Shown here: piece by piece, positions 57,944 to 58,359 of the stretch
Layout: each line of letters starts with the position of its first letter
Position numbering within the stretch: position 1 is the stretch's first letter
Assembly: GCF_033153115.1 (NCBI RefSeq)
Contig: NW_026889801.1
Span: 1,364,001-1,428,000, forward strand
Direction: 5' to 3'
From: Saccostrea echinata
Taxonomy: Eukaryota
DNA length: 64,000 bases
The notes under the pieces: generated by a model
Told to the model about the DNA's origin: nothing
Database searches by the model: none
What the model saw: the letters and a program-made list of their open reading frames with translations, nothing else
Translations under genes and position numbers: made by a program

Positions 57944-58359
57944 ATTTGCCGAATAGTGTATCTGTAGCCTTCACTGCTGGGGTGAGGTTAAGGAGTAGTT
58001 CCTGGAGCGGCGGGATATTGGTGTTCGACAAAGTTATCAACAACGTAGGAGATGGGTATAATCTGTCCAATGGAATATTTACCGCGCCCACTGGCGGGAA
58101 CTATATGTTCTATGTCAGTATCCAAAGTGATAGTAACAATGCAGATATTTGGATAGACATTGTGCTAAACGGATCTAGTAAGGCCCGAGCAATCGCGGAA
58201 GTGTTTAACAGCAACGTTGGCTATGAAACAGGTACAAACATGGTGACATTACGACTTAAGCAAGGGGGTCAGGTTTGGATCAAACATAACCACGGTAAAG
58301 GTTATTACACCCAATTAACTGACGCCCCTATAACAACATTTTCTGGATTCCTCATATAA
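57944..58359 (+). CDS. Intact, divergent globular C1q exon (copy 5 / orphan head)
   Basis: ttatag|AT TTG CCG.. phase-1 acceptor; VAFTAG..LVFDKVINNVGDGYN..GIFTAPTGGNYMF..LKQGGQVWI..TTFSGFLI*; no stops or frameshifts. Expression unproven. Confidence 0.8.

Follow-up and report, generated by a model that had tools for sequence, protein, structure and literature searches.

An intact C1q head exon behind a disabled stalk exon in a Saccostrea echinata tandem array: young relic or alternative last exon

How can an exon that encodes a complete C1q domain stay open when the exon that should begin its protein is dead? The question is raised by positions 57944-58359 of a 64,000-nucleotide stretch of Saccostrea echinata DNA ("the window"). 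A first-pass annotation made from the sequence alone had proposed that this head exon (head 5) is still used, either as an alternative last exon of the upstream copy 4 or behind an unrecognised short signal-peptide exon. We evaluated the anatomy of the locus, its orthologue, the age of the damage and the alternatives for continued use.

The window contains a plus-strand tandem array of C1q-domain genes, whose exons are matched by S. echinata RefSeq proteins at 95-100%. A unit of the array has three exons: the stalk exon encodes the signal peptide and coiled coil, a short neck exon follows, and the head exon holds the whole gC1q domain. Judged by its match to the Saccostrea echinata RefSeq models, the array is a tandem sC1q-like type II cluster. 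Gerdol et al. (2019; PMC6835236) counted 476 C1qDC genes in Crassostrea virginica, assigning 262 to type II and recognising 297 as tandem duplicates. The window genes share with the sC1q-like type II genes of that paper the signal peptide, coiled coil, C-terminal C1q domain, same-strand tandem arrangement and ongoing duplication; copy 5 differs from them in combining a dead stalk with an intact head. The exons and signals that bear on the question are as follows.

8173, 19628, 32693 and 44118, plus strand: stalk donors (exon ends)
9348, 25893 and 39021, plus strand: neck exon starts
9663, 26191, 39471 and 57944, plus strand: head exon starts
31982-32693, plus strand: copy 4 stalk exon, intact
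39021-39149, plus strand: copy 4 neck exon, phase 1-1, donor GCG/GTATTT
39471-39874, plus strand: copy 4 head exon
43396-44118, plus strand: copy 5 stalk exon (signal peptide and coiled coil), dead
44119-57943, no strand: TE-rich interval of 13.8 kb with no neck exon and no assembly gaps
57904-57943, plus strand: head 5 3' splice site, with a CTTAAT branch-like motif and TAG
57944-58359, plus strand: copy 5 head exon, intact, with phase-1 acceptor, whole gC1q domain and stop
58505-58643, plus strand: candidate poly(A) signals ATTAAA (58505) and AATAAA (58638), motif matches only, in AT-rich DNA
62395-62526, plus strand: exon of the next C1qDC gene (RefSeq P0005), a synteny anchor

The head exon is as sound as first described, with an intact acceptor, clean codons and only in-frame insertions. 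Its 416 nt, preceded by AG at 57942-57943, comprise 2 nt, 137 sense codons and TAA without a stop or frameshift, and the translation covers positions 1-127 of the 127 in the Pfam C1q profile (PF00386) at 79.4 bits (curated cut-off 23.7; E 3.6e-22). The pyrimidine fraction at the 3' splice site is 0.71, with values of 0.62-0.71 for heads 2-4. Three insertions distinguish head 5 from heads 2-4, and all are in-frame (+6, +3, +3). It is indeed the most divergent head of the array, with 67-69% nucleotide identity to heads 2-4 compared with 75-79% among those three, and the closest JGI head among the matches listed is 56% identical. The best AlphaFold2 model (pLDDT 85.9) has nine strands and no helix, an all-beta sandwich; the run was alignment-driven, three of the five models fell below pLDDT 63, and the fold is uninformative on whether the exon is live or dead.

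The stalk exon of copy 5 carries six lesions: the start codon ATG changed to ATA, an 8-nt insertion (~43484), TAA at codon 53, a second 8-nt insertion that is a tandem duplication at ~43595-43609, a 5-nt deletion (~43665) and TGA at codon 158. The reported loss of the ATG with several stops and indels is therefore borne out as an ATA start, two stops and three frameshifting indels, and the donor, GTAAGC, is intact. Sequencing error as the source of these lesions was rejected on their nature (8-nt insertions and nonsense changes).

The missing neck was also confirmed, by four methods over 44119-57943 with the real necks recovered as a control. Searches of this interval with nhmmer and hmmsearch gave nothing above noise while recovering the three real necks (137-145 bits for DNA), and a frameshift-aware alignment of the neck of the orthologous S. 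cucullata protein (P0030, introduced below) scored 30 in the interval against a shuffled mean of 33, with real necks at 121-151. A neck concealed in an assembly gap was rejected because the interval holds no N. Forced alignment gave a faint neck-like start at ~57620, likewise rejected: the best score in 57300-57943 was 18 against a shuffled mean of 24. The interval contains the following elements, of which the two tandem arrays resemble bivalve Helitron/Pearl-type repeats.

46542-46811, minus strand: RVT_1 fragment (E 3e-8)
48497-48656, plus strand: first exon of RefSeq XP_061195985.1 (P0001), spliced to head 5 in frame
48555-48782, minus strand: decayed DDE_3-like transposase fragment (E 0.0016, below cut-off)
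49438-49908: 146-bp tandem array
53873-54725: 155-bp tandem array, then a GACA/GACG microsatellite

The best non-self match of head 5 is S. cucullata XP_062567280.1 (P0030, LOC134229550), which consists of a signal peptide, stalk, neck and then a head that is 73% identical to head 5 and shares with it V54M and two insertions. These are insertions 1 and 2; the P0030 model ends before the third. Because the orthologue has both, the first two insertions are older than the death of stalk 5. In a quick tree of 74 heads, head 5 and the first P0030 head are sisters (SH-aLRT 99) with a stem of 0.36 and tips of 0.19 and 0.18, and from this long shared stem the distinctness of head 5 is old. Gene order agrees: P0030 is the next accession after P0074 on one 44,469-bp contig, the P0074 neck is 86% identical to neck 4, and the second half of P0030 matches the gene at window position 62395, as in the window. 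The first half of LOC134229550 thus occupies the same slot, flanked by the counterpart of copy 4 and the following gene, and differs from copy 5 in its open stalk, its neck and the retained GD-motif Asp. The P0030 model is imperfect: it exits the head early, is fused to the following gene and is not proven functional. The descent of copy 5 from a tandem sC1q-like type II gene is supported by paralogues 2-4 and by P0030, and stalk 5 and head 5 are probably from one unit, a conclusion that rests mainly on gene order.

The first-pass annotation had suggested the opposite, namely that stalk and head may come from different units, since the stalk is close to copy 4 while the head is not. Stalk 5 does have 82.7% nucleotide identity to stalk 4, compared with 74-76% to the other stalks, but this closeness is confined to a tract.

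43696-43964, plus strand: probable tract of gene conversion with stalk 4 (269 nt, 24 of them mismatched)

Within the core of the tract (43779-43876) only 3 of 98 nt are mismatched and 32 of 33 amino acids are identical to stalk 4; the permutation P for the tract is 0.0006-0.002. Outside the broad tract, stalk 5 is as similar to stalk 4 (96/144 identical) as it is to P0030 (96/144), and stalk trees of this portion leave its partner ambiguous. Nine sites in the broad tract unite stalks 4 and 5 and one unites stalk 5 with P0030; the corresponding counts outside are five and seven. The local similarity is probably due to gene conversion, although synonymous divergence between stalks 4 and 5 is only modestly lower in the broad tract (0.39) than outside it (0.53). 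P0030 is likewise a mosaic, with a stalk near its paralogues and an old neck and head. As the similarity is tract-limited and the orthologue has the same mosaic, different units are not needed.

The tract also provided a clock for the death of stalk 5, using 87 codons polarised with stalks 1-3 (two changes unassigned). Stalk 5 accumulated seven nonsynonymous changes plus one stop and six synonymous changes, whereas stalk 4 had none and eight, respectively (Fisher P 0.018). Stalk 5 is thus relaxed in the tract and stalk 4 is under purifying selection there. The replacements in stalk 5 are also below the expectation for full neutrality (P 0.045), and we estimate ~0.039 neutral substitutions per site since its death (95% 0.017-0.077); the three point lesions alone would give 0.07-0.08 (about 0.015-0.22). 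Nonsense and acceptor-loss mutations have a target of 16-20 site-equivalents in the head and 37-43 in the stalk. In a conditional test over 54 settings, confinement of every lesion to the stalk had a probability of 0.061-0.140, and the posterior predictive probability that a neutral head 5 is intact was 0.10, 0.16, 0.15 and 0.23 in four settings. Plug-in values for an intact head spanned 0.02-0.54 over the grid, with 0.03-0.05 at the stalk's point estimates and 0.02-0.05 at harsher settings. Because stalk 5 would have died recently (~0.04 substitutions per site), an unbroken head 5 is expected by chance in 6-23% of cases, going by the calculations that incorporate uncertainty in the rate. The intact frame, previously read as a sign of use, is not established as exceeding chance; given the dead copy 1 and the frameshifted neck of copy 2, it is somewhat lucky but not remarkable.

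Pairwise dN/dS had been suggested as a further test of use and proved uninformative, since the dead stalk 5 also has ratios below 1 (0.28-0.45 against stalks 2-4; 0.19-0.30 for head 5 against heads 2-4) and such ratios cannot show present use. Two changes, V80A (58183) and D108G (58267), are private to head 5 among columns with at least 90% conservation across homologues. Position 108 is Gly in head 5 and Asp in 71 of 72 homologous heads; head 5 thereby lacks the acidic residue of the L-x-x-G-[DE] turn, a position that is acidic in cerebellin-1, C1q A, B and C, and C1q-related factor. At least three departures at conserved columns were found in 11 of 74 heads, including both head 5 and the P0030 head. 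Relative to P0030, head 5 has 8 lineage changes in 91 columns and the P0030 head has 7, with no rate excess. The corresponding stalk counts, with X positions counted in, are 23 for stalk 5 and 14 for P0030 over the whole exon, and 17 and 10 once the tract is excluded; the head and stalk ratios do not differ significantly (P 0.34-0.76 at the threshold used; Fisher P 0.74 for the head against the tract-free stalk). Private changes at the conserved columns number 2 of 61 in head 5, compared with 10 of 94 in the whole stalk (P 0.13) and 8 of 58 when its tract is set aside (P 0.05), and neutrality would predict ~5.5 in the head (P for two or fewer, 0.15). These counts lean towards longer constraint on the head than on the stalk, with D108G, one of the two head changes, speaking against it, in a set of protein-level head versus stalk tests whose P values range from 0.05 to 1.0.

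Several explanations would keep head 5 in use. It may serve as an alternative last exon, with transcription continuing beyond the poly(A) site of copy 4 and 57944 receiving the splice from neck 4 or from some other phase-1 donor upstream. The product would be a 418-aa secreted protein carrying the copy 4 stalk and a different recognition head, and the copy 5 stalk and neck would then be dispensable. The head 5 acceptor is intact and the frame from 39149 to 57944 is open, which the first-pass annotation took as support. However, this match is uninformative because every junction in the cluster is phase 1: with symmetric necks, each of the nine combinations built only from intact exons reads in frame, among them the joins of stalks 2, 3 and 4 to head 5, and the two of 11 combinations that are out of frame contain the broken neck 2 or stalk 5. 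Support comes from the purifying selection on stalk 4 (0 nonsynonymous, 8 synonymous), from the intact frame and the lack of a rate excess in the head, the frame favouring such use ~4-16 fold, and from three S. echinata RefSeq loci with this layout, in which a single stalk leads to different heads. These loci, found on other contigs by a shared-prefix scan of 185 fetched proteins with follow-up (P0060/P0186, P0039/P0045 and P0052/P0058; heads 62-81% identical), are LOC133185494 X1/X2, with 273 shared residues up to the neck-head junction and heads 81% identical; XP_061193342.1/343.1 (X1/X2), with 192 shared residues and then heads 62% identical; and XP_061176735.1/740.1 (X1/X4), with 245 shared residues followed by a neck and head 77% identical. 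They belong to the same family and species and have the same modular phase-1 exons; isoforms are annotated there and none is annotated at head 5. The pairs are computational models, and collapsed paralogues can create such pairs. A mechanism of this kind is described in human genes, where C-terminal substitutions arise from tandemly duplicated 3' coding exons through alternative poly(A) sites, 77 of 236 events being C-terminal (PMC8373072). The likeness lies in one N-terminal part with homologous alternative last exons; unlike those cases, head 5 would be a last exon taken from a decaying neighbour gene, a class set aside in that work as read-through. Against use at this locus, a splice from copy 4 must skip head 4 and span an 18.8-kb repeat-filled intron with two assembly gaps, D108G and V80A count against a working head, and no stalk or neck joined to head 5 appeared among the matches listed in the protein searches (29, 44 and the best 120 of 149). 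The silence of RefSeq is a weak argument, since its models leave stalk 4 and neck 4 unconnected as well. Combining, by judgement, a prior of ~1 in 8, a ~6-fold gain from the intact frame, roughly even protein evidence and a 2-fold discount for the missing model, we consider the alternative last exon a tentative possibility. Head 5 may thus be in use, as first proposed, with the precedent in the three RefSeq loci speaking for it; the three arguments that the first-pass annotation offered do not carry the case.

A different account holds that copy 5 is polymorphic, with a null allele in the assembly, intact alleles elsewhere and recombination having put a working head behind a dead stalk. Gene presence/absence variation occurs in bivalves, and the recent death of copy 5, the three exons of its orthologue and the lack of excess change in the head fit this account. 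The six lesions, the neck loss and several TE insertions imply a long-lived null haplotype, however, and no second copy 5 allele was among the matches listed in three protein searches; we consider polymorphism unlikely. Less likely still is a new first exon, whether a signal-peptide exon (giving an sghC1q) or the exon at 48497-48656 that RefSeq XP_061195985.1 joins to head 5 in frame. The latter overlaps the antisense strand of the decayed DDE transposase-like fragment, has a poor donor (ATA/GTCACT) and would give a charged N-terminus, with a hydrophobic stretch from ~residue 18 and no N-terminal signal peptide by eye; it is probably prediction filler. The short signal-peptide exon of the first-pass annotation found no backing in a scan for an ATG, a hydrophobic segment and a phase-1 donor, which returned no strict candidates and, under loose settings, four compared with six on the control strand, although the scan is crude and its strict version would miss stalk 4's own signal peptide. 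It is most improbable that the stalk 5 donor is spliced directly to head 5 without a neck. A CTG to ATG change at 43905, after the last stop, does open a clean 71-codon run (43905-44118) that ends at the GTAAGC donor in phase and would give a leaderless coiled-coil C1q protein of ~209 aa; the neck, being symmetric, can be left out without a change of frame, as RefSeq does with the broken neck of copy 2. But translation would be blocked, or decay triggered, by 13 ATGs and two stops that lie upstream, the product would have no signal peptide, and the 3' part of stalk 5 has 14 nonsynonymous and nine synonymous changes, with replacements at invariant columns.

We consider it slightly better than an even bet (about 0.52) that the head at 57944-58359 is the relic last exon of copy 5, a young pseudogene. 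Copy 5 would have been an old and distinct member of the tandem array, whose genes encode secreted coiled-coil C1q proteins from three exons (stalk, neck and head), and would have been functional until recently. Its neck exon would then have been lost amid transposon insertions while six disabling lesions built up in the stalk. The head is a smaller target and has fewer codons prone to become stops; it would so far have escaped a stop or frameshift, but would be starting to gain missense damage (D108G) and presumably makes no functional protein. Piecemeal damage is also seen in copies 1 and 2, which favours the relic, whereas the intact acceptor and stop, and an intact frame that is the less likely neutral outcome, count against it. 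By its disabling lesions in an intron-bearing duplicate, copy 5 would be classed as a duplicated (unprocessed) pseudogene; with no open signal peptide and coiled-coil exon and no neck, it falls outside the functional sC1q-like type II genes.

As a relic, copy 5 would be an ordinary instance of birth-and-death in a family that ranks among the largest in bivalve immunity. Should copy 4 capture head 5, the case would show how a tandem array becomes a single gene offering a choice of recognition heads, and counting genes would give a wrong picture of the repertoire. The two-headed pairs, if real, would represent head switching by alternative last exons and would be of more interest than head 5 itself. 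One speculative extension, which we think doubtful, is that Saccostrea C1q arrays form a splice-level cassette system in which a live stalk captures the head of its downstream neighbour, whose own stalk and neck decay; such capture is feasible with all stalk, neck and head exons in phase 1. Head 5 would then be a capture caught mid-way and the three two-headed loci completed ones, and oysters would diversify their lectins by keeping the stalk constant and varying the head. The main text of PMC6835236 is without the terms pseudogene, alternative splicing, isoform and gene conversion, and the terms splicing, isoform, exon and pseudogene gave no match in PMC10672478. In the literature searched, including PMC4346834, there was no description of stalk-sharing head switching in bivalve C1qDC genes; subscription papers may cover it.

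RefSeq divides copy 4 into a single-exon stalk model (P0075) and a neck and head model with a short first exon at 38374-38389 (P0003), and its model of stalk 3 begins at an internal Met (19163). XP_061195982.1 skips the broken copy 2 neck in frame. Transcript support behind the models at this locus looks thin, and models such as the split copy 4 and the transposon-derived first exon of head 5 inflate and mislabel C1qDC counts.

The other copies of the array vary in condition. Copy 1 (2334-3825) is an older pseudogene, whose stalk has five stops and frameshifts and a replaced 3' end; no neck was found for it, and its head is reduced to the last ~55 codons. The copy 2 neck (9348-9466) has a 1-nt deletion and is flanked by an intact stalk and an intact head. 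Stalk 3 (18959-19628) is open, yet differs at 11 of 70 otherwise invariant columns and may be under relaxed constraint. All three exons of copy 4 (31982-39874) are open and encode 414 aa. At 39140-39150, neck 4 has AT at the GT donor position of necks 2 and 3 and uses its own donor 9 nt downstream; necks 2 and 3 are without 27 nt that include this downstream site. Assembly gaps lie at 25334-25476, 41318-41450 and 41544-41752, and the distance from copy 4 to copy 5 is approximate because two of them sit between head 4 and stalk 5. Self-BLAST revealed imperfect palindromes at 20896-21586 (79% over ~700 nt) and 13099-13256 (91% over ~160 nt), which are probably MITE-type elements.
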